Assembly: GCF_002105155.1 (NCBI RefSeq)
Contig: NW_019029013.1
Coordinates: forward strand, 1 to 64,000
DNA: 64,000 bases
Direction of reading: 5' to 3'
DNA from: Lobosporangium transversale
Lineage: Eukaryota
A program made the translations under genes and the position numbers. The notes beneath the pieces were generated by a model. The model made no database searches and was not told the origin of the DNA. It saw nothing but the letters and a program-made list of their open reading frames with translations. Positions 31,083 through 60,761 of the stretch are shown one piece after another (the first letter of the stretch is position 1; each line of letters starts with the position of its first letter).

Positions 31083-31252
31083 TGTTACGTCCTGAGGCTA
31101 GGGAGTGTACCCAAATGGAGCACTCCCCTTTTTATTCATAGATCAGAGCAATTAGTGACGGCTATGTTGGAGCCTATATAAGGCTCCGACCTAGCTAAAA
31201 TAATAAACAACTTTTGATCTCCTTGACTTCCGATTTACCATAAAACATTTCA
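31083..31252 (+). repeat. 5' LTR
   Basis: TGTTACG...CATTTCA; contains TATATAA and AATAAA. Confidence 0.97.
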
Positions 31253-31346
31253 TTTTTTCAAGGATCTACATAGAGTTACATCCATCCATTTTATCAATCC
31301 ATCCAACCATTTTTTTTTCCATAATTTCAATCCCTTTATTTCAATC

Positions 31347-36578: not shown

Positions 36579-37215
36579 TTAGCAACCATCAACTTTATTC
36601 TTTCCCTTGCAGCATTTGCAACTAGCAACTGGATGTGATGGCAACTGAGAGTTAAGAGAATCTACAACTTTCTCTACCCGTATGCGCATAGTCTTATACT
36701 TCTCTGATTGCTTGCGCAACTTAGTATACTTCTTGTAGAGGCGTTCATACCTCTTAGCCCATGCGAATTCTCTTTGGAGGCGGCTCTTCGCGGAATCATC
36801 GCCACTCTCCGCCATCAAACGTCTTCTCTCCCCAAGAGTCGTGCACACTCCACAGCTTGACAATTCTGCTTCACTGCTTTCGCTGCCTGATGACTCTTCA
36901 TCACCAGAGGGCTCCTTTCGCTTCCTGATAGGACGAGGTCCTGGGATTTCCAGAGAGGCTGATCGGCTCCGTGCCTCTGGGTGGTAAAACTGATAGTGTG
37001 CCTTTTTCCAGGCACGAGTCTCCTCGTCACTATCCCACAGATCCTCCTCACCCTCATAATCCTCGTCGTCCTCAGCGTCATAGCTGCTCTCTTCCTCAGT
37101 ATCTCCTTCGAAGTTACTGCGATGAAAGCTCCGTAGGGATAAATTCATAGTCCTCATACTCATGTAGAGTTGAAGAGTCAGACAGGGGGGAAGAGGGAGA
37201 ATTGTTAGAAGGCAT
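36579..37215 (-). CDS. Antisense accessory ORF inside the Gypsy element (acidic, basic/coiled-coil, Cys pairs), probably frameshifted
   Basis: MPSNNSPSSPLSDSSTLHEYEDYEFIPTELSS, then a frame change near 37118 into FEGDTEEESSYDAEDDED...CGVC...RYERLYKKYTKLRKQ...CKCC. Confidence 0.5.
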
Positions 37216-37783
37216 ATTGATAATTGTCTGCTGATGGCTGTTATAAGGAAAGTAAGTAATGAGTATGTGTCCCTGCAAGAAGGTGTTTGAGTAGCAAAAG
37301 TGAATACTGAGGAATGAAGGAATGAGTGAGCGTTTGAAGTTTCCAATCTTCATTCCTTTTGACCTTAATCTTCTTCAGTTGCTTCGTGAATCCTGATTCG
37401 TCCTTCTGGGGAAGTGGATGGCGTGATCTTTTTGTGATCCCTGTTTGACAAAGGACCAATGAGATTTCTACATTTTTGACATGCTGAATAATTACTACCC
37501 ACATCTCCTGTATGACACATCCTGATCCAATGGCTGTTATATTTCCATGATCCATTTGCTGACATTACTTTTTGAGATAAAGTCTCTCTCTAATCACAGA
37601 AAAGAAATATCAAAACAAGTTTTAAGAATAGACACTGTGAAGTCTCACGTGAGGTTTAAATTTTTGTCCTCAAGAGGTTTATTTTTTTTCCTCCTACCTT
37701 TCAACAACAAGAGGTTTTTCTTATTTTTCCTCAAGGCCTTTAGACAAGACGCCAAAAACCCTACATAAAATCTGGGGGGGAGT

Positions 37784-37953
37784 TGTTACGTCCTGAGGCT
37801 AGGGAGTGTACCCAAATGGAGCACTCCCCTTTTTATTCATAGATCAGAGCAATTAGTGACGGCTATGTTGGAGCCTATATAAGGCTCCGACCTAGCTAAA
37901 ATAATAAACAACTTTTGATCTCCTTGACTTCCGATTTACCATAAAACATTTCA
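37784..37953 (+). repeat. 3' LTR
   Basis: Matches 31083-31252; preceded by the polypurine tract. Confidence 0.97.
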
Positions 37954-39441: not shown

Positions 39442-39603
39442 CTGATAAGTATTCCTGCCAACAAACCAGCGGAAAACTTTTTTTTTCCTAAAAGTTTCTC
39501 AACGTCATGTGACTCATAATTTGGTAATCTACTTTAGATAATTCCTAAAACCGAAGATTTCATCGGATGCCGAGCCAATAGGCTCTCTCCTCCGTGTTAT
39601 TAT

Positions 39604-39675
39604 GGTCTACTGGCCCAATGGAAAGGCGTCTGACTACGAATCAGGAGATTGCAGGTTCGACCCCTGCGTAGATCA
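39604..39675 (+). tRNA. tRNA-Arg(ACG)
   Basis: Acceptor stem GGTCTAC/GTAGATC, anticodon arm TCTGA-CTACGAA-TCAGG, T arm GCAGG-TTCGACC-CCTGC, downstream T-run. Confidence 0.95.
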
Positions 39676-39781
39676 TTCTCTTTTGTATTGAATAGGTGCC
39701 TACACCGTTTTCTTTTCGTGTTTTTGATTGCAATCATTATCCTCGTAGCCATGATCCAGATGTAAGACCTCTTTTTATCTC

Positions 39782-40492
39782 GGATTAATCTATTTGGCAG
39801 CCCAGTTGCTAAATATTATTTGGCAGCCCATACCAAATATAGTAATTTTTGCCTCTATTTGGCAGCCTACTTCTGGGGGCTGCCACTTAACTTCGCACTC
39901 TTGGGTGGCAGCTGGGCTGCCAAATACATTACTTTTTTTTTTTTTTTTTTTTTGATAAACAGGGTCATAACATCAGTGGTAAAACAAGCAGCGTTCTGTG
40001 GATACATTGCCTTGCACAGCTAATGCCGCCGGAGGTACTAAGGGCAGCGGCGATGACATCTTCACAAAACAGCCTTCAATGTACACGGTTAGGGAATGAT
40101 TTATTGAAGACGTCTAGGTAGTAGGTGAGACGCGTTTGCTCCGAGCGAAAACCTCTCATAGGCATTGATCTCCAAATGGCACCTCCAAAACTGTATGAGC
40201 GACCTACTTGAAAAAAAAAGTCATTAGTTTTCTAAATGAGACAAGACAATGTCACTACACATAACTATGACGTAGAAGACGGGAGCTTTATTAATTTGAA
40301 GTATGAGCGTTATAAACATATACGGTTCCTAGGAATGAAAAAAAAAAAAAAAAAAAAAAAAAAATAGTTAGAGGCCAAATAACGCTGGGTAGGCTGCCAA
40401 GTAAATAATGAATGTTATTTGGCAACTGGGCTGCCAAAGAGAGTCTTGAAAGTTGATTATATTTGGCAATGGGCTGCCAAATAGATTAATCC
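39782..40492. mobile_element. Mutator (MULE)-type non-autonomous element 1
   Basis: TIR GGATTAATCTATTTGGCAGCCCA. 9-bp TSD TTTTATCTC at 39773-81 and 40493-501. Subterminal TTTGGCAGCC repeats. Confidence 0.9.
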
Positions 40493-40514
40493 TTTTATCT
40501 CTTCTGACCGAGAA

Positions 40515-41023
40515 GAATTAATCTATTTGGCAGCCTATTTTTTGAGGCAGCCACCTAACTTCACACGCTTAGATGGCAGCTGGGCTGCCAAATAATGTTT
40601 TGGAAAACTAATATGGAAAGGTTGATTGGCCACACACTACGCCTTGTTGCACTCATCATGTAATTACAAATATTAGTGTTTATCAGAAAGAGTAAAACCC
40701 ATATGAATAAGTTGCGCTTCGATGCCTGTTAGCGGCTTCGGATGGAGCGACGAAAATTGGACTTGAAATGAGTGACTTTGCTTACAGCACCAAGGTATCA
40801 ACATGTCCATAAAGAAACACTCCGTTATAATTTTTTTTTTTTTTTTTTTATTTCCACGGGAGGAGCAGTGTAAGTAAGGTGTGTATGGGACCGTGCAAAT
40901 ACCTTTTTTTATGAGGGTGCTATTTGGCAGCTGGGCTGCCAAAGAGAGTTTTCAAAACTGATCATATTTGGTAATGGGCTGCTAAATAATATTTGGCATC
41001 TAGACTGCCAAATAGAATAATCC
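40515..41023. mobile_element. Mutator (MULE)-type non-autonomous element 2, same TIR family
   Basis: TIRs GAATTAATCTATTTGGCAG / CTGCCAAATAGAATAATCC. 9-bp TSD GACCGAGAA at 40506-14 and 41024-32. Confidence 0.88.
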
Positions 41024-41285
41024 GACCGAGAAAACTAAATAAAATCTAGTGTTCGCTCTGATCCACTCTCTATCTTCTTTTTTCTCACTCAGGAACACAT
41101 CCAGCGTATTGAAGTTCCAAATGAGCGAGTATGACACTTCTAATCCAATTATACACTCTCTCCAGAGCCAGCTGGCTACACTCACCGGCCGGCTTGAGGC
41201 TCTCTCGACTAGCTCTGAATCCAGTCGATCTAACCCCTACTTGATTCCAAAAGAACCAGCGTACGAAATTACACCTGACGACTCC

Positions 41286-44200
41286 TGTAAGCGAAATTAC
41301 TGTTATGATTTTGTACGACATAGCATTTCGCCCAATTTTCAAGGGCATTCCTTACAACAGGACGTTAGATAGACTCACTTTTCTATCTCGTTCTGCAGCA
41401 CGAATCCTCTGAATAAAGAAACCTTTATTACACCCTTAGAGCCCCCTAGAATATTACCTTGATTTTTGCATTGGTAGCAAAGGACACCACGACTACATCC
41501 AGAGAACTACAAGTACCCATTGAGTTCCACCCCCGCCATGGAACACTTGGATAACGCCCTTTCGTCCATTGATCTTCCCTGTGAAAACTTTTGGATAGAC
41601 AAGTAGTAATCAGGAATAGAAGTAAGTGAGAATAAGATGTGGGAACACACATCACATCCATGAGGTATTTATTCAAAATCGTATATATCTAAGTGTAACT
41701 ATAAGTTTGTCTACGGGCACCATACATAGAGTAACCACGGTGCAAACGTGAATTACTACGCCCCCACTATGTTCGCACTGTGCCCCCTGCTTGTTACTAT
41801 TTACACATGGGGCGCGTTTTGATAATCTTGTGTACAAAAACTATATTATCTTTTTACATGAATACACATATTAATTTTTATGTAACACGTGTACTGTGAA
41901 ATATGCAACACCCTGAACATTCGCGAAGCCATAGCCACTGCTTTTAATCAGGCTCTCTCTACTGCCAAAGCCAACGAAGCCGCTGAGAATGACCTAGCCA
42001 GAACCCTTGCCACAATCCTTGAGCCACGGAAGCCTACGCCTTATGAAGGAGCTATTAACGCTGTTGCTGCAATAAACTTTGTCGACAGCCTGGAGGAGCA
42101 TTATACCATTGTCACTCTCACACCATCCAAATGGGTTCGATACGCTGTCCTTAGTCTCAATCGCGAAGCCAAGGCATGGTGGAGAGACTCCGGGTTGAAT
42201 CTCGATACACCTTGGGTTGACTTCCGTAAAGCGTTCCTCCGTCAGTTCACCCCTCCAGACTCTGCGAATGCAGCTCGCCGTGAGTTGGATAAACTTCGCC
42301 AAGGAAGGATGAGTGTGGCAGCGTATACGAGCAAGTTTAGAAGCCACCTACGTCTGGCTACAAATCTCGACAAAGACTCTGCTTTGCAAAAATACATGCT
42401 AGGCCTCGAGCCCGAAACAAGCAAGCAGGTAAGACTTAGACAGCCAGAGACGTTGGACGATGCCATTGAGCAGGCGACCATTATCCATAACATTCTACCT
42501 CCCGTCGATGCCACTCCTGTGTCCGCTGCCCCGAACGCCTTATCACCCATCATGAGAATAATTCTGGCCGTACACCAATGGAGCTTGATAACATGAGAGT
42601 GTTGGTTGCCAACCTTTACACCTCTTTCCATCAGCAACGACCAAACAGAAACCACTCCAGCCAAGCTCGCTACCCAAGCTCATAACAGCTGAACGAGAAC
42701 GCTGCGTCCGTGAGGGACGTTGTTTCAGATGCCGGAACCGAGGCCATAGAGCCGAACAATGCCAACTTACCTCTGTCTTCAATATAGAAAACAATGACCA
42801 TACGCTTTCTGAGTCGGGAAAAGAGGAGGGCGAGCAGTAAGCCAGGCCAGCCTCGCCCCCTCTAACCTCAGCCTTCAAGCCCTGGATAACTCACAGGCAA
42901 GCAAGGTGGATGGAACTGCTTCAAGAGTATGATTTCGTATTCAAGCACAAACCTGGTAAAGATAACGTCTTTCCTGATGCTCTTTCACGAAGACCTGACC
43001 TCAAGGACTTGGAGGCTACCCCTACTACTTTGAACTCGTTGGATATCAATCTGGACCCTGGCATTCGGAAACAACTGGCCAGTTGCTACCTACACGATCT
43101 AATTCTAGGTCCCCTCGTGCATCAGTACAAGGATGCTTCCACCTCGGATCGTTACTTTGTGGTTGATGGTCTACTCTGGATCAACGCTGGACAAGGCCCT
43201 CGCCTCTGCATACCAAGGACGACGGACTCCGTTCACAACTCTTGCATGACGCTCACGACGCTCCTATATCAGGCCACTTGGGATTCGATAAAACGTACAG
43301 TAGCATGCGGCGAACATATTTTTGACCACGCATGGCGAGAGATATAAAAAAATTCATTGCTTCCTGTGAACAACGCCAGCGTAACAAGCCTTCACTAAAG
43401 CCTCCTGCAGGGCTTTTCCAACCTTTGGCAATCCCAAGTCAACGATGGGATACTGTAACAATGGACTTCATTGTCAAGCTTCCGAAGACAACCAGAGGTT
43501 ATGACGCGATCATAGTCTTTGTGGACAAACTGTCCAAGCAAGTTCATTTCTCCGCTAGCTGAACTACCGACACAGCCTCTGACGTTGCACGACTCTTTTT
43601 CGACAATGTTTTTAGACTGCACGACATGCCTCGGACAATTGTATCAGACCGAGATTCGCGCTTCACTGGCAAGTTATGGACAACGTTGATGAAACTCATG
43701 GGCACCAAACTTAACATGTCTACTGCCTTTCATCTACAATCAGACGGACAAACAGAGCGTGCCAACAGAACACTAGAAGAAATGCTCCGCTCTTACATAT
43801 CGTACAAGCAAAACGACTGGGATCTTTTACTGCCTATGATGCAGTTCGCATACAACAACTCTGTTGATCCTACGACAGGTTTCTCTCCGTTCTTTCTGAA
43901 CTATGGCTACCATCCATTAGTCCCTGGATCTCTTTTAAAGCCGCCTGATACCAATGTTCCAGCTGTCAGTGATTTTGTTCGAACCCAGTCGATGAATTTG
44001 GCGCTAGCTCAGGATGGCATCATCGAAGCGCAGAATAGGCAAAAGGCTCAAGCGGACAAAACTCGTCAGGCTGCTACATTTGCTGTGGGTGACATGGTGC
44101 TCTTAAGCTCGGAAAACATCTCTGGCGCCGGACATAAAAACAGATCGTCGCAGAAACTGGAACCTGAATACATAGGCCCTTACAAGATCATTTCCAAGGT

Positions 44201-44432
44201 CAACGAAAACGCCTACAGGTTGGAATTACCACCTGACATGCATCAGCATCCGGTTTTTAATGCCGATCTGCTTCGCCCTACATTGAGTTATCTCGTGAAT
44301 TCGGCGGCCGCTCACCACTACGCCCTGCCCCTGAGCTTGTAGAAGGAGAGGAGGAGTATGAAGTCGACAAAATCATTGACTTCAAAATGTTTGGCAAGAC
44401 CTCTAAGCAGCTCGTTCTTTGGAAGGGCTATC
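41286..44432 (+). mobile_element. Degenerate, internally deleted Ty3/Gypsy chromovirus
   Basis: LTR 41286-41470, then PBS TGGTAGCAAAGGA. Gag at 41889-42840 (AKAWW, LRQG..SVAAY, CFRC..GH..C) runs almost directly into the RNase H end (WMELLQEYDF..DALSR). Frameshifted integrase (MDFIVKLP, IVSDRD, DGQTER, IGPYKI) and a truncated chromodomain (YEVDKI..LVLWKGY). Confidence 0.9.
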
Positions 44433-44827: not shown

Positions 44828-47391
44828 TTAAGAAATAAACAACTTCTTGATTTCTTTAACTTTCGTCATGTTGGCTTTTGGTAATTTTTGGGTCAAGAAA
44901 GTAGCAAGGCTCTCCAGTACAGTGTTGAGCTCAGAGTTTTCAATGATTGGGATTGATTGTACACCAGGTGTGAAGAGTGCATGGATACTTTGTATTAACC
45001 TAAGAACCTCACTGGAGGGCTTGCAATGGGGGAGTGCACGCTTCACATCATCCAGTCTGAGAACAGCACATTCTCCATCGACAATCACCGATTTTCCGAC
45101 TCCATTAAGAATTATACCAGCTGCAAAGCTCGAACCCTTAACATTGCTGTGGTTCGCAAAAGTAAAAACAGTAATTGGCTGGAACAATGTGGAATCAGTG
45201 AGTGGTCCAGAACGCCTTGACAATTGGTAAGTGTCCATCAGGTGAAACTTTGTCCTCACTTGTCGTAGTTGCTCGGTTCCCATCTGTCTGGTGATTTTTT
45301 CGCAAGTCAAGTTTTCCATCTTTTCAACTTGTTGTAGGCGCTCTTTGTCAAGGAAGATCCTGATGTACTTCGATTCGCTCTCAGAAATGTTGAAATTTTG
45401 TGTGATTCCGCCAGCTGAAATTGACTCTACACACTTGATGTCGAGACGCAAACAACTGGTGACTAAGATATCACACTTGAATGTCCCAATTACGAGGTGC
45501 TTCCCACCACTCCTTTCCATTGTAATTGGACGAACGCCAAAGTAATGGTCCTCACCGGTTGTCTTTGGCATGGATGTTTCTTTGGGAACATCCTTCACTA
45601 TCCCTGTTTGTTCATGATGAGAATCATGGAGTCTTCCTCTTCCATAGACCTCCACCTCGTTAATGAGGAGGAGTGTTTCACTCCTTGAGTTAAGGAGTAG
45701 TGTCCCTGATAACAAATGACTTGCAATATGGCAGGCCTGAGGTGTTCGCTCCCATGAAAGGTTTAATTGCTCACTCGTTGAATCTGTCAATTCCGTGAAG
45801 GACCTTTTATTGATAGCTTCCGCAAATGGCGAGTGGCGGAGAATTCCCTCGATCGATGGAGGAACTGCATCGGATCGTTCGTTCTCCTGAATTTTCCATG
45901 GAGGCAGGTATCCAGAGGCATGGACAGATTTATTGACTAAAGCAAGGACAGATGCTGTTGGGAGTGAATGATAAACTGTTTCTGAAACAAGAGCATCAAA
46001 CTCACATCCAGAGATGGATATCCCCATTGGAAATTGTCCCATTCTGTCAGAATAATACAGCATCTTTTGCTTTTCCTGTTCTGATGATGACTCCAGTCCA
46101 CATGCGTGTATCAGAGCTTCGTTAAATGGACGCCAACTCTGAGGTGGCCGAGCCGACTGAAAGGATGGGACAGGGTGGGCGTCTGAATCTCTTTTGGCTT
46201 CATACTGCGTGTAACACGATTGGGACCCGAACAAATGCTTTCGGAAGCCAGATTTCGTCTCGAATGAGGCTTTACACTCCTTGCAGTAAAATTGACCATC
46301 ACCGCTTCTTCTTATAACCAGACACCTCTTTCCCAAGGCAACAACGCCATCAACGGTATGACAATCACCGATATGGACAGTGAGCTTTCGGATAGACTCA
46401 AATGTTCGTATCTTCGAACAATAATCACACACGATCTTCTCGATCTCCTTATCATCAACGACATCATCTTCAGATCCAACATCATTACTCTCTGAAAGTA
46501 CTGTAATTGAGTCATCGTTTCTCCGTTTCTTTGAGCAACGCCTAAAGGGAAAGAAAAGACTGAATATTAGTGCGTGGACAAGCAAAAAAAAAAAAAAAAA
46601 AAAAATCCTGAGTGGACAAGACAAGCAAAATAAAAAATTAATCTTGCATGGACAAACGAAATAAAAAATTAATCTTGCATGGACAAACAAAATAAAAATT
46701 ATTCTTGCATGGACAAGCAAAATAAAAAATTAATCTTGTATGGACAAACAAAATAAAAAATTAATCTTGCATGGACAAACAAAATAAAAAATTAATCTTG
46801 CATGGACAAGCAAATAAAAATTAATCTTGCATGGACAAGCAAATAAAAATTAATCTTGCATGGACAAGCAAAATAAAAATTAATCTTGTATGGACAAACA
46901 AAATAAAAAATTAATCTTGCATGGACAAACGAAATAAAAATTAATCTTGCATGGACAAGCAAAATAAAAATTAATCTTGCTTGGACAAGCAAAATAAAAA
47001 ATTAATCTTGTATGGACAAACAAAATAAAAAATTATTCTTGCATGGACAAACGAAATAAAAAATTAATCTTGCATGGACAAACAAAATAAAAATTATTCT
47101 TGTATGGACAAGCAAAATAAAAAATTAATCTTGCATGGACAAACAAAATAAAAATTATTCTTGTATGGACAAGCAAAATAAAAAATTAATCTTGCATGGA
47201 CAAACAAAATAAAAAATTATTCTTGCATGGACAAACGAAATAAAAAATTATTCTTGCATGGACAAGCAAATAAAAATTATTCTTGCATGGACAAGTAAAA
47301 TAAAAATTATTCTTGCGTGGACAAGCAAAATAAAAAATCCTGCGTGGACAAGCAAATAACAAAGGAGGACTTCTTACATTAAACTAGCCAT
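44828..47391 (-). CDS. Zinc-finger protein (two C2H2/C2HC-like motifs) with uncharacterised C-terminal domain
   Basis: Exon 1 47391-47378 (ATGGCTAGTTTAAT), intron 47377-46542 (GTAAGA..ACTAAT..TTAG), exon 2 46541-44828 in frame: MASLMRCSKKRRNDD...CDYC..H..CH...CKEC..HL..C. Confidence 0.75.
46575..47357. repeat. Minisatellite, 29-31 bp unit, about 25 copies
   Basis: Unit approximately GGACAARCAAAATAAAAAATTAWTCTTGYAT. Confidence 0.97.
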
Positions 47392-47904
47392 GTCTTAGAC
47401 TGCCGCAACAAGGGGACAACAGTTGTTGCAGAGAAAGCTGAAAATAAAAAGACAGTGGGCAGATTCGAAAATAACAAAAAAATAATAACAATAATATGTG
47501 GGCTAGTGGGCAACAGCTGTAGAAGAGAGTGACAACTGCCGAGAGAGAGAAAAAAAAAAGAGATGGCAGCTAAAATAAGGTAACGCCTGTTGCAGAGAGA
47601 GAAAAAAAAAAGAGACGAGAGGATACACCTGTTGAAGGTAAGGTAACAGCTGCCGCGAAGATAAAACGTGTTGAAGAAATAAGGAATAGAAAAGTGGTGA
47701 GCTGTGGAACAGTGACAAAAAGAAGCACAAACCAAATTTTTTCTCTGGGAGGCGCAGACAATAAACAACGTGAGAAAAAAATGAAATGAAGGACAAACTC
47801 TCAGTTCTGATCTCGGCAGGATGTTTATCCGCAGTAAGTACATGTACACCATGTTCTGCATCTCGTACGTTTACACCAGACCACTGTTGGAAGAAGCTGC
47901 TCTG

Positions 47905-48300
47905 CTGCGATGAAAAAATTTGTTTTTACTCTCGACCGGCCACTTTGAACTGTGACATCTCCTCAAATACTGGGACCTGAGGCCTGGGGCCTAGATCATT
48001 CGAAAGAGGATACTCGGGGCTATCGATCAGTCAAATTCCAAAAAATCGGACACGACGCCCTAAGTGCAAGATCTCTCCAAGTGCAAACCATGATAAGAAC
48101 CGGCTGCTAAGATCATCAAGCACTTAGAGAAAGTAGCTTTACTGAGATGAAAAAAAAAAATTATTGTTTTTACTCTCGACCGGGCACTTTAAGCTTCCAT
48201 AGCTCCTCAAATACTGGGAACTGAGGCCTGGGGTCTGGATCATTCGAAAGAGAATACCCAGAGCTACCGATCCGCCAAATTTCGAAAAATCCGACACGAC
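47905..48300. repeat. Two ~150-bp imperfect direct repeats (third, degenerate copy ~48340-48470)
   Basis: TTGTTTTTACTCTCGACCGG.CACTTT...CTCCTCAAATACTGGGA.CTGAGGCCTGGGG..GATCATTCGAAAGAG...AAAAATC.GACACGAC at ~47905-48056 and ~48142-48300. Confidence 0.9.
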
Positions 48301-50310
48301 AACCCCCCTTTGCCATTAAATACATCGCTAGAAAAAATCTGAAACAAAAATTTCATCATGTCACCTCTGTATCACATTAATTTACTCATTCAAGATTGGG
48401 ACCTGGGGCCTGAGATTTCAAGCACTTTAAGGGAATACAGAGTTCTCACAGTTAGTGAAAATGCGAAACTGAGTCAATGGTTCATTCCAATGTAAATTTC
48501 TTTTTTTCATTTCTAGAAACCGTATATGCATACAACTCTCATACTTTGCTTTAATAAGCTCTCGTCTACGTCATAGGTTGTGACATTGGCTTGTCTCATT
48601 TGGAAAGCTAATGACTTTTTTGTTCATTGTATCGTTTATTTATTGGCGGATGTAATATAACAGCGATAATATTCGCTGCCGTAGTATCGACTTGAAAGGA
48701 GGGCAATCTGAGTTGATTCAATCTACCGCACCATGGAGCTTGACTAACTTGATCTTTTCCTGTACAGCTCGGCAAGACTTGATTTGTCACATCGTTTGCT
48801 TTCTCGTCTTCTTGCGTTCCCTTAATATATCTGGGTTGGTAAACACTGCTAATAGAGTTTGCTGGGCCTGTTGAAACCAGAGGGAACCACAGCAACATAT
48901 CATACCCAAGGTGATACAAATATCTCTGTTGGAGTGAATGGTGAACTGTGTGTGGTTCAAATGTAGTGGACATAAACGGCGAAAGAATGCATCGAAGGCA
49001 TGCAAACGGTTATGAGAGCAAGGAAGAAGGGGTTGGTATGCCTGTTCAAGTCCTTGGCAACAGAGCATGAGTAGCAGTTATGATCACAAGTTGATTTCGG
49101 TGAGTCAGCATAACAATGGTATAGTTTCAAGACCCTATCATCCACGCACAGCATTGCATTATTGTTGTGTTCAGACCTGGCACCAATCATGCGAGGTATT
49201 TCTTTTTCTAAGGGTTCCTTGTGTAAAACGGCCAGACAAAAAGCTTAAAAGACATACAGACACAACGGTGAAAAAATGAATGTGAGCAAACAGTTGCTAT
49301 GCTTATTTGTTGTCTGCACATGCCTTCTTTCATCGCAGGCTTTTTTTTATTGTTTCGAAAATATTTGGCAAATATTGTTTCCTTTTTTGTTCGTCAATCA
49401 CTGTGTGCACGAACATGCACCAGGTTATTGAAGTGTCTCTTTGGTTTCTGTACATGGATAAACACATTTTGCATCGCGGCGTTTTTTTTTTGTTTTCTGC
49501 AATTCCAAAACATATGCGTTTTCCATTAGTGCCTCCAGAAGAAATAAACAAACTTTATTTTGGCGGCCACTCCACAATCATGCCATGGTTATAATAATCC
49601 CTTGGAAAGGATCAAACGCGTCGGTATTAATCTCGCTTCTGTAATTCTAGATGCATATATTTTGGCGATTGGTATCAACTATCAAATTCAGACCTACACA
49701 CACCAAACGACCGCTAAAAACCACCACTCTCGCTTCTGCTCTCCCTCCATCCACAAGGCGCTGCACAATATCACCATTAACAAGGCACCGTGCACTAAGA
49801 AAGGGTGCTTAGATAGCTTTTACTCCAAGCAATAAGCGCATGCAACTACATCACTCCTATCTCCGCCATTGATGCCGAAGCCTGAGAGCTAACGAATATC
49901 TCTGCTTTAACGCAATAGTGCTGGAGCTGTTGGAGCAAAGAGCGACATCTGAACCCATTCTCTGATAAAAAAGACTTTTTTTTCTCTTGTTGTTACCTTT
50001 GACAAGGATGTAATTACTTGTTCCAAAAAACTATATGAGACAATGTTAAAATTCATCATCAATCCAGGATATAAAAAGAGATCATTGTCTTACTCCTTTC
50101 CCGCTCGCTCACTCCAAAGTCCCATCCCTTTTACCACTGCTACTTGTTCCTGTATCTTTTTCTCAATATTCTTTATCTATTCACTATGGATCTTTAAACC
50201 ATAAAAAGCTCATTCATTTATACCTTTGTCGTTCTTTTTTTTTTCTTTTTCATTTCTTTTCATCACCGCCATTTTTCCTTTTTCCTTTCTCTTTCGCTTA
50301 GATATTGACC

Positions 50311-53300
50311 ATGGGGCTGAAGTCCTTCTTCAAACTGGTTGCGGATCGTGGGATTTTACCTTCGGAGACTGACGTGGGCACTTTCTTGGCGGCAAATCCT
50401 GACCATTCTGTTCATGTAGATCTTCTCAGTACGTTTTATTACGACATCCACCGTAGAGTCGTCCATGCTAAGATGAAAAACAAACCCAACGTTGATGTAG
50501 GAAGGTCCCTGGCTCTCGAGATAAAGGATCCTTTCATAACGGACAATCTGACTATACATATTGATGGGAGACCTTGTACTGAGAAAGAAACAGCAAGGAC
50601 AGAACGGCAAGCCATAAGACAAAAAAATATGGACGTTTTGGAGAACGATATGAGCACTTTCGAGAGAAATTCTCGGAGTGGGGTATGGATTCGCCCTCAA
50701 GTCATGAGGCGCATCCAGAAGGGTCTTTGAGATGTCCACACCCTGAGCGTCCAGGACAAGAATCAGCTGGCAACAGGCCTTGGCTCTGTCTTCGATGGCT
50801 GTCTGTGTGCAGATGAAGCGGATCCATGCATAGGGCGCCATAATGAGGAGAATGATAGGATCGTGATATCCCAAGACTCTAATTTTTTTGCGTACGAACG
50901 AGTCTGCATCCTAGTGCGACCCTTCCACACCGTAGACGGAGGTTTGGGGTTTACGATGTAGACAACGTTATCCAATCACTAAGACTGCCATCACACGAAC
51001 ATCTGGTGCTATTCTGTGCCATCGCAGGCAATGACTACTCAAGGAATCTCGAGATGTTGGGCCCGATTAATAACCTTCGATTAATTCGAAAGGTTGCACG
51101 GAGCAAGCACTACAATAGAATGCTTCGAGACTACCTAAGGGAAGCTAGTAAGGTGTTGGGAAGGGATGCAGCCTCTAAAGAAGGCCGTTTCAGAGTAGCT
51201 TTCCGCGTTTTTACTTCCGGCCATCAAACGTCTGCCCAAGCGTTATCATCGAACAATGAGTTCGATAACTTCAAGCAGCGTCTACTCAATGGAAAGGATC
51301 TTCGCCATAGAATGGCTCAGCAAAGGCGAGCGCAGCGCCGCAGAACGTAAGAAAGCTCAAGCTATAGTTTTTGTCTTGAAACCAAACGTCCCCAATACTA
51401 ATCGTTAGTCCCTTTCTCGGATATTGTAGAGACGCACTATCATTCTATATAGCGGAAGGGTCACATAGAAACCAGCTGCGGCCCATCTTTTCTGACAAGC
51501 CGAGTATATCGAATCGGCGCACAGTTGCTATCAGTAACTGCCGTAAGCACGATAGGCCGGGCCTTAAGCATCCACCACGTCGGAGAAAGGTAAAAAAGAA
51601 GCAACAGAAAAAACAAAAGCGGAAGCACAAAGACAAGAAGCCTCACAGGGCTAAAAAAGAAGGTGCACCAATTAGGAACTTGAAGGATGCTACGAAGGTT
51701 GATCACAGCTACAGCAGTAAGCACCTTATCAAGGCCTTAACAATTGGGTCCCTCAAGGCTTCCATGGCAAGGAAAGGCAGACTGGACGCAGATGAAAGGG
51801 ATAATATTGCAAGCCAGATTCGAGGGGCAGTTGTTGTCTTCAACCGACTACGCCGCTATGCATACTGGACGATTGCCTTGGACATTGAGAGGATCATGCG
51901 GCTACCAGGGGCAGCAAGGTCGAGGAAAAAGGCACTGGACGAGGTCTTGGATAGCACTGACTGTTCCTTCCGTCTCGCCACCCTTCTTTTAAGTGGTCAA
52001 GGTGGCCCCAATTCAGCTTACGCGAGGGCAAAAAACCAAGGAAGGGCGGTAGAAACGCCTCACTATCTCCTCGCTTATGAACATTTCAAGACCACCACTG
52101 AACTTTCCCCAATAAAGGAAATAGACATCACATTGGGGGACGTGCAAGGCTTTGATCCCAAAAAGCACTACAGGAACGCAATTGTATAACCTTGTGTAGG
52201 TATTTTCATGCATATTCTGCAATCAAATCTCTCTATTTAGACTCTTTTATTTTTTTATTTTTATTTTTTTTTCTAGTTTGATGTCGAGAAAACAAACGAG
52301 CGACATTGAGTTTTTTTGCGGGAGAATAAAAAAGTGAAAAAATACTCAGACTTTCCTACGTCCCCCTGCTCACCCGGGTATGTGTATCTGTCTGAACACG
52401 CCCTAGTTGACATCCTTTGGGCGAACGAAGATACCAAGCAGCTGCTGGAGCGTATTCTGCCTCCCAATAATCCCTCCAAGACTGCAATGTTTGAGTGTGT
52501 ACATACAGGGAATAAAAGGGGTTTTGATACAGGCTCTCTTTTGTGACATTGGTTCATGGATATCGAGATAAAGTATCCCTGCAGTCACAGGACAAAGATA
52601 TAACTCGGTTCAAACTCAAAGGAACGATTTCTACCAACGGTCTAGTCCTGAATCTACTTGCCTATGACACAACCCAGACGAAGAGACAGCAGCAGTCTGA
52701 CGTAGATGAAGAAGACGCCAGCCAAGAACTGGAGCTTTCTCAGGGATTTCTCAACACGATGTGTTCAAAGGCAGCCGGTGAAGTCCTGGCAGATGAAGAC
52801 TACGTAAACACAAACTGGAAGAGGAGCTCCAAACTGCTTGAAAATGTTGAGCTCACATTCAACGAGCCAGAGCGATGCCCATCCGCAAACACCACAACTA
52901 TCGTCGGATGCGATCCTGGTATGGTTAACGCCCTTACGTTTTCCTCGCTGGACCCTCACAACCCTAATTTGCGGCAAACGGTAAAGGTGAGGAGCAGGTT
53001 CTTGTACCTCCCCGTCCTCCGCTTCAATCACCTGTTGAACAAAAGGAAGCGTGAAAAAGGAATGATTGAGGTTGAGAGCGCCATCCCTGTGTTTGGAAGG
53101 GATACGTACAATAAGTACTTTCAATGGATGAACGAGGAGTCCCAGACACAGACAGGATCAAAGAATTTGGATGTGCTTCAAGAGTTCTACGAGTCCAGTT
53201 GGCACCTGAAAAAAAAATGGGACCTATGAAAGGCTCAACGAGTTACGTTCAACTACGTGGTGCAGCGAGTGTTGAAGATGCTCGGGGAAAAAGGAGTGCT

Positions 53301-53742
53301 TGTCGTCGGCCTAGGGTCCTTTGAAAGTAGTAAAGGAGTTCCCAGCAAGCACACTGCTATAACGAGACACCTTGCCACACAGGTATGACTTTTTTAAAAA
53401 AAGTAAGAAAAGCTGGAAAGCCATAGAACCCTTGCTAATAAACGACTGCCATTTGAAACGCTTAGGTCAAAGCGCGAGGACACTTCGCTGTAGGGGCGCA
53501 CGAATTTTACACCAGCGCCCACTGTCCCCGACCCCTCTGCGATAGCTTTTTACTTTTTAGAGGCGGTGTACCCTCGCTCTAAATATTGCCGGGCATGTAA
53601 GGCATTCTTCGACCGTGACGCAGTAGGGGCGGAAAACATCGCAAGAATCGGTCTTGCTCAAATTGAGAGGCAAGAGAGACCTGCAAAGTACAAGCCCACG
53701 GAAGAGTCACCTGCTCCGGCTGCAAAGCGCGCACGACGCTAG
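50311..53742 (+). pseudogene. Degenerate spliced gene: XPG/FEN1-like (PIN) nuclease fused to a Fanzor/TnpB RuvC nuclease
   Basis: N-terminus MGLKSFF..VHVDL..IHIDG..EK..EADP..ISQDSN..AGNDY. C-terminus KGTISTNG, IVGCDPG (RuvC-I), HEFYTSAHCPRPLC (RuvC-II), CRAC..FDRDAVGAENI (RuvC-III). Introns 51347-51429, ~52200-52276 and 53383-53465. In-frame TGA at 50728 and 53227 plus several frameshifts. Confidence 0.85.
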
Positions 53743-54138
53743 ACACAAGTATTTGGGTGCCGGCACACCCACAAAAAATTTGTAAGTTCTGTTTATTTTC
53801 GTCTCCTGTATCCATCCTCTCTAATCTTTTGCCCCTAAATTTCTGGACTAACTTTAAAAACCGTACAGATAACAGATAACTAAAACCAAAGTATAAGAGG
53901 ACAAGAATGGAAAAAGTTCGACTTCAACAAATAACCAAAAGCAATATAACATTTACTTTTTTTTGCGTTTACGACATATGGATATCTTTTTGTTCTTTTC
54001 TTTTATAAAAGACCAAGAGTACGTCGTGACAATATATACAAAACGAGTAAAACGATAAGGATACAAATGTAGTAAACTGTCAATGAATACTTGTATGACT
54101 GGTCAGAAGCTTTTTTTTTTCCAAAAAAAAAAAAAAAA

Positions 54139-55477
54139 TTAACGAAACTCAAAAGATCCAAGTGACGATGGTCGATCTGCAACATGCTTCAACATCAGTC
54201 TTTGGAACCTATTGGTTTTTTTATAGAAGGATATAATACATCTCAATAAACAATTTGGACATAATTCAAGCATTACAAGTTGTTCAGGAGAAAAAAAAAC
54301 TTACTTTTCACTTGATCGATGAAAGTAGTAGCCATCAATCTCCCCTGTAATTTTATTGTAGCAGATATAGTAAAATCCTGCGAAGCTTGCTCCGCTGATG
54401 CCTTGAACACGATGGTCTGGCACTAGGAAATGCTCCTTCCAACGCATAAAAATCACATCCTTGTTATGAAAGTCATATTTGATCTCCTTGTCACCAAAAG
54501 TGTCGATCATTGGTGCAAATGGGCTGAACTTATTCTAATATTGGAAAATGAAATGTTTTGAGTAAATTGTAGATTAAGAGATGGTGGCACAAAGAGAAGG
54601 ATTAAATGAGGAAAGGTCATGTGTGCATTTGAGAAGTTGCTACCGTGAATCCGGGAACAAGAAAGGAGGAATTGAACTCAAAGCCATAATCCATTTCTTT
54701 TTTTTTTTTGTTCTCAAGACGATAGAAGCTGAATTCATTCTGAAGCCTTACCCAATGCTCCTTGTCTGTACTAACGGTGGCATCCCATTTTTCTGTAACA
54801 AAAGAATAATCTGGTCCTACGATCTCGGCATCAAAGAATGTAGTCAATTTTGGGTATTCCTTAGTGAGTCCATTGATATGTAGATATCCACATAATGAGG
54901 AACCTCTCAGATTAACATCCTATAGATTGTCCCAAAAAGCCGTGATATCAGTAAAAGAATAAGGCCATGGTCAATAATGAAAGGAAAAAAAAGGCTTCAG
55001 CAGCCCAACTGATTACTCGGCAATGAAAATATCAAAAAGCTATACCTTAATGTCGACCATGACAACGTAGTTGCTACTTCCAGAAATTTGCTCGCCTTTA
55101 AACTGACTCCCTGGATAGAGATGACAAGACCTTGAGGGTTGTAGACGTACTGGCGCAAAAGGATCGTGCCGCCGAGGGATAGTCGAAACTGGAGGTTTCC
55201 GAAGCAAGGCCAGCCCACCGACCAACTTGAGTTGTGTTTGTTGCTGTTTTAGCTGGGATAGCGCGTTTTTGCCGTTGAGACTACTGAACGCGGACGCGTA
55301 GAGAGCACAGGTTGGGAGGTGACAAACACCGTCAGGGTGAATGAATGATGCATTGTTGTCCTTGCCGATGACATCGTCTGTGTCCATGCACAATTCATCT
55401 CCACAAGTGCAAGCAGCCAGCACAGCTGTTTGGTCTGCAACTGGATTAGCAGAGCATATCTGTGCAAAAACAGGCAT
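54139..55477 (-). CDS. GID4: GID complex substrate receptor Gid4/Vid24
   Basis: LYPGSQFKGEQISG..YVVMVDIK/DVNL..LCGYLHINGLT..LTTFFDAEI..FVTEKWDA..DKEHW/..FMRWKEHFLVPDHRVQGISGASFAGFYYIC../FQRLML..SFEFR*. Confidence 0.95.
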
Positions 55478-57356
55478 GGTTCTTTCTTGTAACTGCCGGC
55501 TGAGTTGTATTACTTTGAGCTATGGTATGTACTGTTTTTTTTTTTTTTTTTTTTTTTAACGCCTTTTTCTTTTTTTTTTTTACTCTTTGTCGCGCGTCTG
55601 CTTTGTGCTTTTATTTATGGCGGCGATGTCTGTGGTATTAGTGTCCTGTGAGGATTTCAGTAGTTGTTAAACTGGGCTTGTTCTGATGAATGTGTGTTGT
55701 TGGAGAGAAATGAGCGAGTGGTTTTTTGAGTTGCAGGTAATAAAAAGAGAGAAAGAAAGGAGAAAAGAGCTTATTTCTTGGAATATACATGTGCATACAA
55801 TGGTATCAATTGACCTGACCACCAAGCCCAAGCCCAAAACCAGACCAGCTGACAACCTGACAGGGAGACAGATAAAACGCTCTCACAATCATTGTCATTA
55901 CTGAGGATGGTAAAGCAGAAGAGGTGACAATGCATCCACTTTTGTTCGTCTTTTTTTTTTTTTTTTTTTTTTGCTTCATGTTGATTGGCCTTGCTCGTTT
56001 CGATGCGGTATGTGCGCAACGACAGGAGGATGACAAGGGGTAAAGAAAGGGAAGAAAAAAAAAGCCCACACGCTACACAAGTACGACCTGTTCTCAGCTT
56101 ACGGATGTATCTTTTTTTTTTTTTTGTTTATGCATCTTTTTCACCCTTTTATCCCTCAATTCTTTATTCCTCTCTGCCTCTTTCGGTCCACCAATGGAAA
56201 GAAACTTTCAAAAATGAAAAGTTACACATCCTATTCGAGAATGCACAAACACGGGTCTACGCCCGAATATGATACCCCTCCATGGGTTCTTTCTGCAATA
56301 ATCATCGGTCGGTAGCCAAATTCTACTCGTATGTCCTGCTCTATTCATATGAGATTATAAAAAAATTCATCAAGAGCCCGGAAGCAATTCCGGTTCATTG
56401 CTTCGCCCATTTTTTCTTGGCACTCTGGCTCCTTCAAGACTCCTCTGTTTTATGAACTATTCTTAGTAATTTTTTATTCATTCCGATAAGAAATCATCTC
56501 CTGTATGTTTAGCTTTAGTGGCATCGTGGGAAAACATTAGCTGGTGCATGTGTGTCATTGCCATTTCTGGCATGATATCAAAATGCATACAAACCATACA
56601 TACACCCGAGTTCAAAGGAAAAAAAAAATATCATTCAGTCTCAATGCAGATTCAGAATAATCCGTATTCTCGCAAAAGCGTCCGATAAAAAATAAAATGT
56701 AGAGAGACCTTGTACTGTACTATGCACTGATTGCAAAATGCCTGTTATAGTATCTAGCTGGAGACGAAGATTGAAGATCAATTCGATACGCCACCAAAAT
56801 GAGTTTGTTATCGACGTTAAGGAGAAATCCCGTACATTACTGTGTGAACGTTTGTCATGGAAACCATATGTTTGTAATCTCTATTATTTTAATGTCGATC
56901 GATGGACGCAGATGTATCCGATCAATACGTCAATAATATCAAGGTGTCCATGGCACAAGGATGACAGATGGGGATAGATCGATAAAGTTACCAGGGACTG
57001 ATAATTTTTCATTTCCTCTTTGGTTTTGGTGTGTGTGTGGAATGTGACTATCAATCACTTTTCACTCACACACAGTCAGACAAGAGACGGGAAGAGCGAT
57101 ATGATAATGAACACTCACATCTCAGCATCGCAAACCTTACAGCGAAAGTTATCATCGCGTATCAATCGCATCAGGGACAACACATGCGCTGCGGCCCTGG
57201 TATAAATATCTCTTGCTCGATTCTTTTTTTTTTTTTTTTTTTTTTTTTCCTTTTCTTTTCTCCCACACATCAACTCACTTCTCTTTGATTTGCCCTCGCA
57301 TTTACTCATACTTCACTTATCCATTCATATCTATATCCACATTCACATTCACAACA

Positions 57357-58725
57357 ATGGTTTATCTTTGGTTAAGAGCTGAGACTAAGGCTATGGAGCA
57401 CCGAGCTGCTCTGACTCCCTCTACCTGCAAAATACTCCTTGATCGAGGATTCAAGATCACCGTGGAGCGATCCCCGGAGCGCATCTTTGACGATGAGGAA
57501 TATGAAAAGTATGTCCTCAGTTTTTTTCCATGTTATTTTCTTTTTCCCACAGTGATCGTAATCCGATTTGAAGCTTTCATCGCATATTATCCTAACCACG
57601 TTCAACTCCATATTTCTTTAGGGTTGGATGCCATATGGTCCCAATTGGAGAGTGGCGTAAGGCTCCTGAGGATGCATATATTGTCGGACTCAAGGAGTTG
57701 CCCGAAGGCGAGGACGACCCTTTGCGCCATACCCACATTTTCTTCGCTCATTGCTTTAAGAATCAGAGCGGATGGACCGACATTCTCGGGCGATTCGATG
57801 CTGGAAACGGAACCGTCTTGGATCTTGAGTTCTTGAACGATTCTAATGGACGCCGTGTTGCTGCATTTGGATACCATGCTGGATTTGCTGGGGCAGCTAT
57901 TGGAGTTGACAACTGGTGCCATCAAAAGCTACATCCTGGTCAGCCCTTGCCTGGTTACACGCCTTTCCCTAATGATGCCTCTTTGATCAGCTATATCAAA
58001 GAGCGTTTGGAGCATGCAGGTAATAGATAGATTGATTGATATTACTCTTGGCGTTATGAGCTTTCCCACGACTAGACCATTTGTTTGGTTCGGTTGAGTG
58101 TGTTTGATTTTTTCCTAGCCAGTGACTAACTTTTTTCTGCGTGGTGTACGTAACCACTTACATAGTTGCCTTGAATCATGGTAAAGTCCCTGAGGTCATG
58201 GTGATGGGAGCATTGGGTCGCTGCGGAACAGGAGCCTGCGATTTGGCTCGTGCCGTGGGCATTCCTGAGGAGAAGATCATCAAGTGGGACTTGGAAGAGA
58301 CTAAAGATGGCGGTCCTTTCCCTCGTATTCTCGAGTCAGAGATCTTTGTCAACTGCATCTACTTGAACAAGCCCATCCCTCCTTTCTTCACTCCTGCTAT
58401 GCTTGACGGAGAACGCAACCTGTCGGTCATTGTTGACGTTTCATGCGATACTACCAATCCCCATAACCCTATCCCTGTTTACAGTATCAACACCACATTC
58501 GACAGTCCCGTCGTGCCAGTCTCCACCAAGAACCCCTTGCCTTTGGATGTCTGCTCGATTGATCACTTGCCCACACTGTTGCCGAGGGAATCCAGTGAGG
58601 CCTTCTCAAAAGATCTCTTGCCCACCATCATTGATTTAGAGCGTCGTGAGGAAAGCACTGTCTGGGGTGGCGCTGAGGCTCTCTTTAAAGAGAAGGTCCA
58701 AGCCATGAAGTCTCTCAAGCAGTAA
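57357..58725 (+). CDS. LYS1: Saccharopine dehydrogenase (NAD+, L-lysine-forming)
   Basis: Three exons. LWLRAETKAMEHRAALTP, GLKELP, FAHCFKNQ, DLEFL..GRRVAAFGYHAGFAG, GALGRCG, DVSCDTTNPHNP, IDHLPTLLPRESSEAFS. Confidence 0.97.
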
Positions 58726-59117
58726 AATATGGGATTTTGTCATCATAAAGAACCCCATTGATCTGTTCTCTCTTGTATCATACACATCTAAATCCATTCT
58801 TCCTCTAAATAAAAAAAAAAGTATAAAAATGAAATATTCATCTTGGATAAAACATTCGCTTCTGTTGGTCGATGATTCTGATTCGTAGAGCCAATAGGCA
58901 GCAACTCCATAAATGGATTGTTCACTTCCTGTCTGCCGGTTCCGATCATCGTCACATGACACCACTATTTTCCCCGCTACATTTTCTTTGGCCGTTCACT
59001 TTATTGACCCATTCGTTTCGTTTCGTTTCTGTCTCATTTTCTTCTTTACTCTTCCCATCGTTAACACTTGGTCTGTCCATTAACAACTGCGGCTAAATCC
59101 CATACCAACAGGATCCG

Positions 59118-60761
59118 ATGAGCGACAACAACAGCAGCAACGAAAATAGCAACAGCACTGCAGAGCAGACAGTTGACCCAGTCCACCAGCTCTTGCAAAG
59201 CAATGGTGGTAACAGTGTTCCAGGACAGGCTTTGACAGCCGAACAAAGAAATGAACGTCGTGAAGCGCTTTTGAAGCGTCAACGGGAGTCGAGGGAAAAA
59301 GCTCAGCAGATTTCTCAGGCTGCGAGAGCTAATGCTGCCACTGGAAATGGAAATGCATCCATTTCAACCAGTGGTGCAGCCTCAGTGGCTACAGCATCTA
59401 CACCTGCCAATGCACCAGCACCGGCACCAGTACCAGCAGCCATCCCGCCAGCCATTTCAGCGCCTGTCCCTGAAGCGCCTGTACGGGAAAACATGATCCA
59501 ACAGGCTGTTGCTTTCCTATCTTCTCCGAATGTTCAGTCAGCGGAAGAATCCAAGAAGATTCAATTTTTGGAGAAAAAGGGTTTGACGGCCAAAGAGATC
59601 GAGCTTGCTAAAGCCCGAGTTGCCGCTGGAAAGACCACTGCTACTGTAAGTGCACAACTTTTGTTTATTTTGCTGTTCAAGTATATATGAATATTTGTAT
59701 ATCAATAATAATCATTTATGCTATCACATCCTCAGACCACGGCCAACGTCGCTCCTCATTCACAGCAACAGCAACAGTCCTCGTATCAGCCGTCATCTGC
59801 ACCCGCATCACCACCAAGCAGCCTAACCCCGCCTCCAGTCCCACCTCGTACCTATACCACAGCACCAATGCATCCTCAACCCGTTCTCATCCCATCCCAA
59901 CAAGTTGCGCCTGTTGATCCAAATGCCTTCAAGAGAAAGCTAGTCATTGCGATGATTCTCTCTGGAGGTATTACTGTTTTGGCGACTGTCCTTATTCAGG
60001 TAAATGATGATGATAATACTAATAGCTTGAATACTGCGAAACGACCTTTTATTTAACGTGACAATTTTTCTCTTAACTGGCTACTATAGAAATTGTTGTA
60101 TCCCATGGTTCGTGGTATCACGAATGCACGCCAAAAGCTTGCGATCTCACAGACAGAATTACTCAGCAAACTTAAGGAGAAATTGCAGGGATACAAGGGT
60201 TACTTACTAGGACTTCAACTGGGAAGCAATCGCTTTACGCCTAATGTTAAGAAGATCAAAGACACCAAGACCACTGTGGAAGACGAGGAGCACGAGGTTG
60301 AATCAAAGGATGGTGATAAGAGGGTTACTACCACTAGCGTTACTACTACAACAACATTAAAAGCAGCAGCAATACCATCGACCGTTAAACAGCTTGATAC
60401 GTTCTCACAGAAATTGGAGGCGCACGCTAATAGCCTAAACTTTGAGCAATTGAAGGCAACGCGGGCCGTGACTCAAGACTTGGCAGAGTATATCACCAAG
60501 GAGACATATGCACTGACAAGCTCCATTGCTTACCCCACCTCACGGTACTACGGCTATAACACCGCAGGCGCAGCAGCCTCTGGAAAGGGCGGTTTATCAG
60601 ACCCTACATCACCCGAGTCTGCACTGAAGAGTGAGATCCGTTCCTTGAAGGGCTTGCTTCTAAACTGGAGAAATTTTCCTACAGCAAAAGAAACAGGAAC
60701 TGGCGTGGTACAGGGAGCAAATGGAGTTAATACATTGCCCAACCTCGTCCAACAGCAATAA
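59118..60761 (+). CDS. PEX14: Peroxin Pex14
   Basis: RENMIQQAVAFLSSPNVQSA..KKIQFLEKKGLTAKEI (Pex14 N domain), a TM segment, and LKSEIRSLKGLLLNWRNFP. Three exons (~59118-59645, 59736-59999, 60090-60761). Confidence 0.92.

Follow-up and report, generated by a model that had tools for sequence, protein, structure and literature searches.

Two groups of described nucleases are closest to the locus reported here. The first is Fanzor1, represented by SpuFz1 of Spizellomyces punctatus (PDB 8gkh, 9ceu-9cez; PMC10432273; PMC3627910), a protein of about 630 residues; according to the available text of PMC10432273, its guide corresponds to the 3' flank, its cut leaves 5' overhangs, and SpuFz1 elements are repeated, carry one open reading frame (ORF) without a transposase and end in a non-coding tail running from the stop codon to the right edge. 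The Fanzor1 motif is given in the available text of PMC3627910 as D-X(125,275)-[TS]-[TS]-X-X-C4 zinc finger-X(5,50)-RD, and the RuvC-II Glu is placed six residues ahead of the zinc finger in that of PMC13565253. The second group is that of the EXO1/FEN1/XPG(Rad2) 5' nucleases, FEN-like PIN enzymes with seven acidic active-site residues (PMC5499597). An EXO1-type domain has also been tethered to an RNA-guided double-strand cutter by engineering, in the EXO1-Cas9 'exonuclease editor' (PMC11107001, as described in the text available) and in other exonuclease-Cas fusions. Here, we analyse a gene at positions 50311-53742 (+) of a 64,000-nucleotide stretch of the Lobosporangium transversale genome (contig NW_019029013.1, positions 1 to 64,000), referred to below as the window. 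This gene belongs to a family that almost certainly joins both kinds of nuclease in one protein: its unbroken relatives are single proteins of 1,100-1,300 residues in which a head with the EXO1/FEN1 fold is tethered to a nuclease with the Fanzor1 fold.

The window copy is legible as a single gene across several frames, from an ATG at 50311 to a stop codon that ends at 53742. Indeed, all the FEN1/XPG and Fanzor motifs listed in a preliminary description of this DNA are present, in order, on the + strand, together with the two TGA codons and the several frameshifts that it reported. The gene model comprises four exons, with an X-bridged product of about 1,060 residues, and is composed of the following parts:

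50311-51346, + strand: exon 1, EXO1/FEN1-like PIN nuclease head, about 345 codons, with a TGA at 50728, a frameshift near 50920 and Asn at 50881
51347-51429, + strand: intron 1, with GTAAGA, a CTAAT branch-like site and TGTAG, linking the head and the Fanzor part in frame; seen in an RNA-like contig of a sister copy
51430-52183, + strand: exon 2, linker, Lys/Arg-rich stretch and start of the Fanzor-like lobe, 46% identical to residues 345-681 of the Mortierella protein P0007
51578-51640, + strand: Lys/Arg-rich stretch, putatively nuclear-localisation-like, in the low-confidence linker of a relative's model
52184-52276, + strand: predicted intron 2, GT..AG with a T-rich tract; its removal restores the spacing of relatives
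52277-53382, + strand: exon 3, Fanzor-like WED/RuvC-I region with Asp 52912, four frameshifts between 52292 and 52557 and a TGA at 53227
53383-53465, + strand: predicted intron 3, GTATGA..CTAAT..TTAG, where the gene models of several relatives stop or derail
53466-53742, + strand: exon 4, RuvC-II Glu 53502, four-Cys zinc ribbon and RuvC-III Asp 53617; a 7-base duplication near 53546 shifts the frame

The acidic codons of the head are Asp 50419 (VDL), Asp 50563 (IDG), Glu 50815 and Asp 50821 (EAD), Asp 50875 (DSN) and Asp 51033 (GNDY), and its basic codons are Lys 50584 and Arg 50605. The tail codons are RuvC-I Asp 52912 (GCDPG), RuvC-II Glu 53502 (HEFYTS), four Cys and RuvC-III Asp 53617 (DRD). 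This reading frame is interrupted by two in-frame TGA codons (50728 and 53227), by six frameshifts (about 50920, 52293, 52311, 52515, 52555 and 53546-53559) and by the in-frame loss of some 20 codons around 52165. Three of the six frameshifts are paired with insertions or deletions in sister copies (50919, 52310, 53546), the remaining three being positioned by homology; a seeming third TGA, at 52307, was rejected, since placing the frameshifts takes it out of frame. The Asn of the DSN motif (50881) represents the change of a catalytic Asp that is invariant in the family (36 of 36), and six of the seven acidic head residues are kept. Given its TGA codons, its frameshifts and this Asn, the window copy is a dead gene, in agreement with the preliminary description. 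The intron that the latter had proposed at 51347-51429 is recovered in RNA-like data from a sister copy, but it is one of three in the present model. Introns 2 and 3 were placed from splice signals and homology, and no RNA joint for them was present among the joints listed (15 of 42 and 15 of 30), which is not evidence against these introns.

The window's own fragments give only sub-threshold Pfam matches (XPG_I_2, E 0.18; Cas12f1-like_TNB, E 0.099), and the family assignment therefore rests on relatives. The gene pieces match the 998-residue protein P0007 in order, with 31-49% identity (tblastn E 8e-145 to 3e-21), so the motif order is not due to chance. Among named proteins, the closest are gene models of Lobosporangium transversale, five in number and all partial (81-87% identity).

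That head and tail form one protein was established from these relatives. P0007, found by a search with the tail, spans both halves, and a search with P0007 yielded a 1,153-residue protein reaching the zinc ribbon. The latter was used as query for a HMMER scan of 50%-identity representatives, which gave 839 matches at E up to 0.001, the best 150 of the 839 being taken. Both the head and the tail profile lie on one chain in 28 of the 155 fetched relatives; the others are fragments, of which 19 have the head alone, 35 the tail alone and 18 the middle alone, while 15 span head and middle and 40 span middle and tail. Twenty long members include 16 with Mortierellaceae names, from the genera Mortierella, Dissophora, Actinomortierella, Entomortierella, Linnemannia and Benniella, and four metagenomic ones (P0128, P0111, P0077 and P0127) that form their own branch in the trees of both domains. 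P0128 is encoded at 567-4409 of the metagenomic contig L001 by a single uninterrupted, intron-free ORF of 1,281 codons, and is the sole protein among the 24 scanned to exceed both Pfam cut-offs (XPG_I 28.9 against 24.9; Cas12f1-like_TNB 27.8 against 26.3). In the ESM Atlas, one close cluster of 58 members was found, all eukaryotic and bearing an automatic name only. Exact peptide patterns of the relative P0093 were unmatched in viral contigs, which is weak evidence.

Furthermore, in one contig of the RNA-like run X5, 51346 is followed by three letters and then by 51433, which corresponds to splicing of 51347-51429 in a sister copy, with one substitution. The RNA status of X5 is not on record and was guessed from four CT..AC splices that this run shows in neighbouring genes. 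The joint is absent from the DNA run X3 and from X8, a run that was left unused (coding region almost uncovered, C-to-T-skewed pattern). An alternative in-frame acceptor at 51408 was considered and is not the site used in the X5 contig. Trees of the two domains (19 sequences with at least 55% of both domains covered, five near-duplicates excluded) contain zero supported conflicts, the four supported splits of the head tree all recur in the tail tree, and head-tail distances correlate at 0.77, a value reached in 0 of 2,000 permutations. This agreement indicates that the join is old; it says nothing on why the join was kept, since any stable gene would give it.

An explanation without any fusion, by two adjacent pseudogenes or by a captured host EXO1 joined to its neighbour by gene prediction, could appeal to the automatic gene models that make up most of the relatives and to the window fragments falling below all Pfam cut-offs. 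It is, however, largely refuted by the intron-free P0128 ORF and by the RNA splice of the sister copy, and the congruent trees also speak against it, as does the head being only 16-17% identical to human EXO1 and FEN1, which makes a recent capture unlikely; we regard this explanation as scarcely credible. The fusion thus stands as first described: relatives, one of them intron-free, carry both parts on one chain, and intact homologues do not always encode them as separate proteins.

The head was examined by profile and by model. A phmmer search of P0007 against PDB returned nothing significant, so that profiles and folds had to be used. With 23 head-containing proteins as a profile, FEN1 (best E 3e-5), Rad2/XPG and EXO1 were matched in PDB. 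The unbroken relative P0093 was modelled from a 124-row alignment (mean predicted local distance difference test, pLDDT, 77.7; predicted template modelling score 0.62), while a single-sequence model of P0009 (pLDDT 35.7) was not used for fold searches. In the P0093 model, confidence is mostly above 85 over residues 40-340 and falls below 50 in the linker (residues 348-382 and 402-427). Residues 2-312 align with EXO1 (7mxr) at Z 23.0 (root-mean-square deviation 3.1 A, 278 residues), with FEN1 at Z 22.1 and with XPG at a best Z of 21.0, and comprise a PIN core, a helical arch and a C-terminal helix-turn-helix. The head is thus modelled as a FEN-like PIN fold in which EXO1 and FEN1 are tied by Z, so that it is not assignable to one over the other. 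Its first naming as XPG/FEN1-type holds as regards FEN1, with EXO1 and FEN1 being at least as good matches as XPG.

With EXO1, FEN1 and XPG(Rad2) (PMC5499597), the head shares this fold (Z 21-23 over about 270-280 residues), the Met-Gly start, the seven acidic residues, a Lys and an Arg at the positions of FEN1 K93 and R100, and the helix-turn-helix; it differs in being just 14-20% identical to them, in lying on a repeated element and in being fused to a RuvC nuclease. Each of the seven acidic positions and of the Lys and Arg is 94-100% conserved in 37 head sequences, and all nine are intact in 27 of the 31 rows that cover them. The Lys and Arg presumably act as gateway residues.

The tail is assigned to Fanzor1-like nucleases by profile and by model. 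A profile of 25 tail-containing proteins retrieved SpuFz1 first (E 3.4e-9) and the viral Fanzor2 (9b0l) second (E 3e-8), and Foldseek with the P0093 model placed SpuFz1 at the top (E 2.2e-9 over about 790 columns), ahead of FEN1, EXO1, PpFz1 and GtFz1. SpuFz1 is therefore the best match of the family by both profile and fold, and the TnpB/Fanzor RuvC identity proposed for the C-terminus is upheld, as is the PIN/FEN1 fold of the N-terminus. The X-bridged read-through contains the Bao-Jurka motif (Asp, 172 residues, TS, four Cys, 5 residues, RD), and six residues separate RuvC-II Glu 53502 from the first zinc-finger Cys; the D..E..D RuvC triad and the Glu-to-four-Cys spacing are shared with SpuFz1, as far as the latter's available description goes. 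The Fanzor part is longer than the last 500 or so residues first attributed to it, although its layout is as described: it starts soon after the Lys/Arg-rich stretch. This stretch, first seen as an NLS-like (nuclear-localisation-like) linker across the intron, is present but lies in exon 2, after intron 1. The triad (D-E-D) is kept in 22 of the 24 rows covering the tail sites, and in 17 of the 24 together with the four Cys (all eight positions); five close cluster members and the read-through of the window are counted among these rows, as among the 31 of the head. Both active sites are conserved across members that are less than 50% identical. In KAG0303305.1 of Dissophora globulifera, for instance, the gene model retains the two active sites along with four zinc Cys. 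Compared with SpuFz1, the fusion family has an extra N-terminal nuclease domain with an intact active site of its own.

Sequences of this family are already catalogued as Fanzor1, according to the parts of the literature available, with the nuclease head unremarked as far as searched. Indeed, a supplementary table of PMC10432273 lists as FZ1 more than a dozen Mortierellaceae proteins that, by eye, have such a head, including P0122 (KAF9146337.1) and one named 'Rad2 nuclease' at NCBI; it also labels as FZ1 ORZ22893.1, judged by eye to be a near-identical Lobosporangium sister fragment. At least one such protein is found in the available table of PMC10711439. An EXO1/FEN1-like head on a Fanzor is not mentioned in the main texts, as available, of PMC3627910, PMC10432273, PMC10530073, PMC10711439, PMC10691335, PMC11423790 and PMC13565253, a scope that stops short of figure S1B of PMC10530073 and file 2 of PMC10432273, which may bear on novelty. 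No papers pairing Fanzor with XPG or with Mortierellaceae turned up (subscription literature and Repbase being outside the scope), and those retrieved for Fanzor with 'PIN domain' or 'flap endonuclease', partly judged by title, contained nothing on the fusion architecture. The preliminary statement that no characterised Fanzor is known to have this architecture is therefore matched by the texts searched and is qualified by the FZ1 entries. One sentence in the available text of PMC11071296 calls the 'Fendons' of large DNA viruses 'candidate Fanzor flap endonuclease homologs'; these were rejected as a prior instance, as four sequences of its supplement are, by eye, stand-alone FEN-like proteins without a Fanzor tail. 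The engineered EXO1-Cas9 is artificial and Cas9-based, whereas the present family, whose activities are predicted, is natural, eukaryotic and of Cas12/TnpB lineage.

The gene, which has spliceosomal introns and is eukaryotic, had been delimited as one spliced gene, which it is, but it sits inside a larger repeated unit with a defined right edge:

about 48497-53885, strand not assigned: repeated unit with the gene, about 5.4 kb, edges approximate, left edge possibly out to 48461
48497-48628, strand not assigned: left terminal segment, common to other repeats and preceded by a T run; 81% inverted match to 40209-40348; other contigs diverge at 48621-48628
53743-53885, + strand: repeated 3' tail, from the stop codon to the right edge, 143 bases, repeated in sister copies; site where a Fanzor guide-RNA scaffold would lie

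Summed contig depth, which is not a copy number, was tens of times higher over 48500-53881 than over 53882-55500 in three DNA runs (3,700-31,600 against 93-152; 112-687 against 5-12; 132-765 against 0-12). This high depth and hundreds of contigs at 82-99% identity identify a repeated family. Beyond about 53885, some 143 bases past the stop codon, sister contigs no longer follow the window (their loose ends lie at 53870), and deletions in sister copies (49577 to 50750) link the upstream region to the gene. As in the SpuFz1 elements of the available descriptions, the unit is repeated and has a single ORF, no transposase of its own and a non-coding tail; it differs from them in that terminal inverted repeats were not found in the window copy. 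A gapped alignment of the two ends of the unit was no better than shuffles.

Several observations concern the edges of the unit. The region 40209-40348, an inverted copy (81%) of the left 130 bases, lies beside a 27-base A run, and other repeat families carry the same left end and then diverge; this common end may be a transposon terminus that they share, or it may come from the tail of a retroposed repeat. A second high-depth repeat (48172-48460), part of which is duplicated at 47913-48056 (83%), adjoins the left edge. Near both edges (48493-48524 and 53836-53865), two short words, one of 9 and one of 8 bases, recur as direct repeats in unchanged order, with spacings of 24 and 22 bases. A 39-base piece of the 3' tail (53793-53831) is found inside an abundant unrelated contig of run X5 (depth about 900), which suggests that tail fragments occur inside host transcripts.

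These features bear on one possible role of the head, namely that it serves the copying or integration of the element by removing 5' flaps or primers from transposition intermediates, in an element that may be mobile without a dedicated transposase and whose Fanzor part opens or chooses the target. No Pfam transposase match was obtained in the six frames of 47400-50310, and L001 carries the fusion ORF only; no terminal inverted repeats were found. The unit recurs many times, with sisters that carry internal deletions, and a T run comes before the left edge at both of its sites in the window, as in the Helitron2-type Fanzor elements described in the available text of PMC3627910. Absence of a transposase is nevertheless ordinary, since SpuFz1 elements also lack one inside their ends (PMC10432273, text available), and T runs are frequent, with 100 runs of at least 7 T in the window. 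We consider this role unlikely.

We favour a role of the two nucleases in homing. Homologous repair requires 5' resection. In the proposed sequence of events, (i) an omega-RNA would be produced from 53743-53885, with the flank past the right edge as guide, and (ii) the Fanzor part would make an RNA-guided staggered double-strand break beside a short motif, both by analogy with Fanzor1; (iii) the tethered head would trim the 5' strands, by resection or by removal of 5' overhangs or flaps, as suggested by EXO1/FEN1 chemistry and by the engineered EXO1-Cas9; and (iv) this trimming would disfavour end-joining, the element being copied back from the occupied site by homologous recombination. For moves to new sites, a transposase supplied in trans is assumed, because the unit encodes none. 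In support of this proposal, a 2026 review presents such nucleases as homing enzymes that restore the element at the empty site (PMC13565253, text available), and the EXO1-Cas9 fusion increased homology-directed repair and decreased non-homologous end-joining (PMC11107001, text available). Its basis is observed: the gene is single and spliced, the two folds are present with conserved active sites, the halves are inherited together, the unit is repeated in the genome, and the window copy has lost its function. The chain as a whole, from guided cut through tethered 5' trimming to copying from the occupied site, is in our view somewhat probable. A further-reaching version, in which the element is RNA-guided and free of any transposase, one two-nuclease protein cutting, resecting and driving its own copying into empty and new sites, appears doubtful; if true, it would amount to a gene drive of natural origin that works by cutting and resecting, and to a compact editor that favours homology-directed repair.

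Several results weigh against homing by cutting and trimming. All five Lobosporangium sister gene models are partial or broken, and neither a terminal inverted repeat nor a target duplication was found in the window's one decayed copy. The 3' tail of this copy gave no folding signal (z +0.26, with 124 of 200 shuffles folding as well) and no omega-RNA match in an Rfam search, and it does not resemble L001's 91-base tail, a comparison in which 43 of 300 shuffles did as well. Of the 33 two-profile relatives, only 6 carry both full site sets (the nine head positions and D-E-D) on one chain, and only 2 of those 6 keep all four zinc Cys, many of the gene models being truncated; P0111 and P0128 keep the RuvC triad and have lost zinc-ribbon Cys. 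Splicing of intron 1 is supported by one contig (depth 17, short side of 43 letters) of a single run of guessed RNA status, and X5 also contains an unspliced contig across this intron, from a deleted sister copy. Lastly, the direct homing tests cited in the available text of PMC13565253 concern TnpB and IscB, Fanzor itself being cited for cleavage only.

The unspliced contig would also suit nucleases that share a gene but act apart, with a head-only enzyme, or a head that processes the guide RNA or another RNA, and a tether without any role at the break. A head-only product is possible because retention of intron 1 puts a stop directly after exon 1, and seven head-only database proteins (342-390 residues) end near that stop. 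However, the intron-free L001 ORF cannot give such a product through splicing, an intron-blind gene caller would yield the same head-only entries, and the head retains two features of FEN-like enzymes that act on DNA, the helical arch and the helix-turn-helix; we judge this arrangement improbable. Alternatively, the protein could be a target-destroying device, acting in defence or conflict, which would cut rival elements or foreign DNA under guidance and then delete long stretches of them exonucleolytically. Engineered exonuclease-Cas fusions do enlarge deletions (PMC12581816, PMC13545839, texts available), and the two active sites are both conserved. The many decayed copies in one genome nevertheless suit a selfish element better than a kept host gene, and a guide store was not found, so that little likelihood is left to this explanation either.

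The family bears on a point argued so far mainly by analogy with bacterial TnpB, namely what benefit a Fanzor brings to its element. A 5' nuclease whose active site is intact and which has stayed tethered through deep divergence points to end processing as a limiting step in eukaryotes, in which end-joining competes with homing, an idea that two point mutants make testable. The family is the natural counterpart of the EXO1-Cas fusions engineered to raise homology-directed repair, which makes its unbroken members candidates for use as editors; the interest is in the family rather than in the window copy, which is dead.

In the neighbourhood of the unit, a 633-codon ORF (44828-47716, - strand) with weak C2H2 zinc-finger matches, no family assignment and single-copy-like depth contains an 836-base intron (46541-47376), spliced in X5, that is filled by about 26 copies of a 30-31-base unit. 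Further to the left are a Ty3/Gypsy polyprotein ORF of 1,587 codons (31227-35990, + strand) with identical 170-base direct repeats (31083-31252 and 37784-37953), a weak DDE transposase match (36582-37349, - strand), a tRNA-Arg(ACG) gene (39603-39676, + strand) near several short palindromic repeat copies (39780-41025), and a decayed second Gypsy element (41886-44342, + strand). To the right of the unit, ordinary host genes are encoded at 54200-59700, namely a spliced Vac_ImportDeg gene (minus strand), a dehydrogenase-like gene and Pex14.

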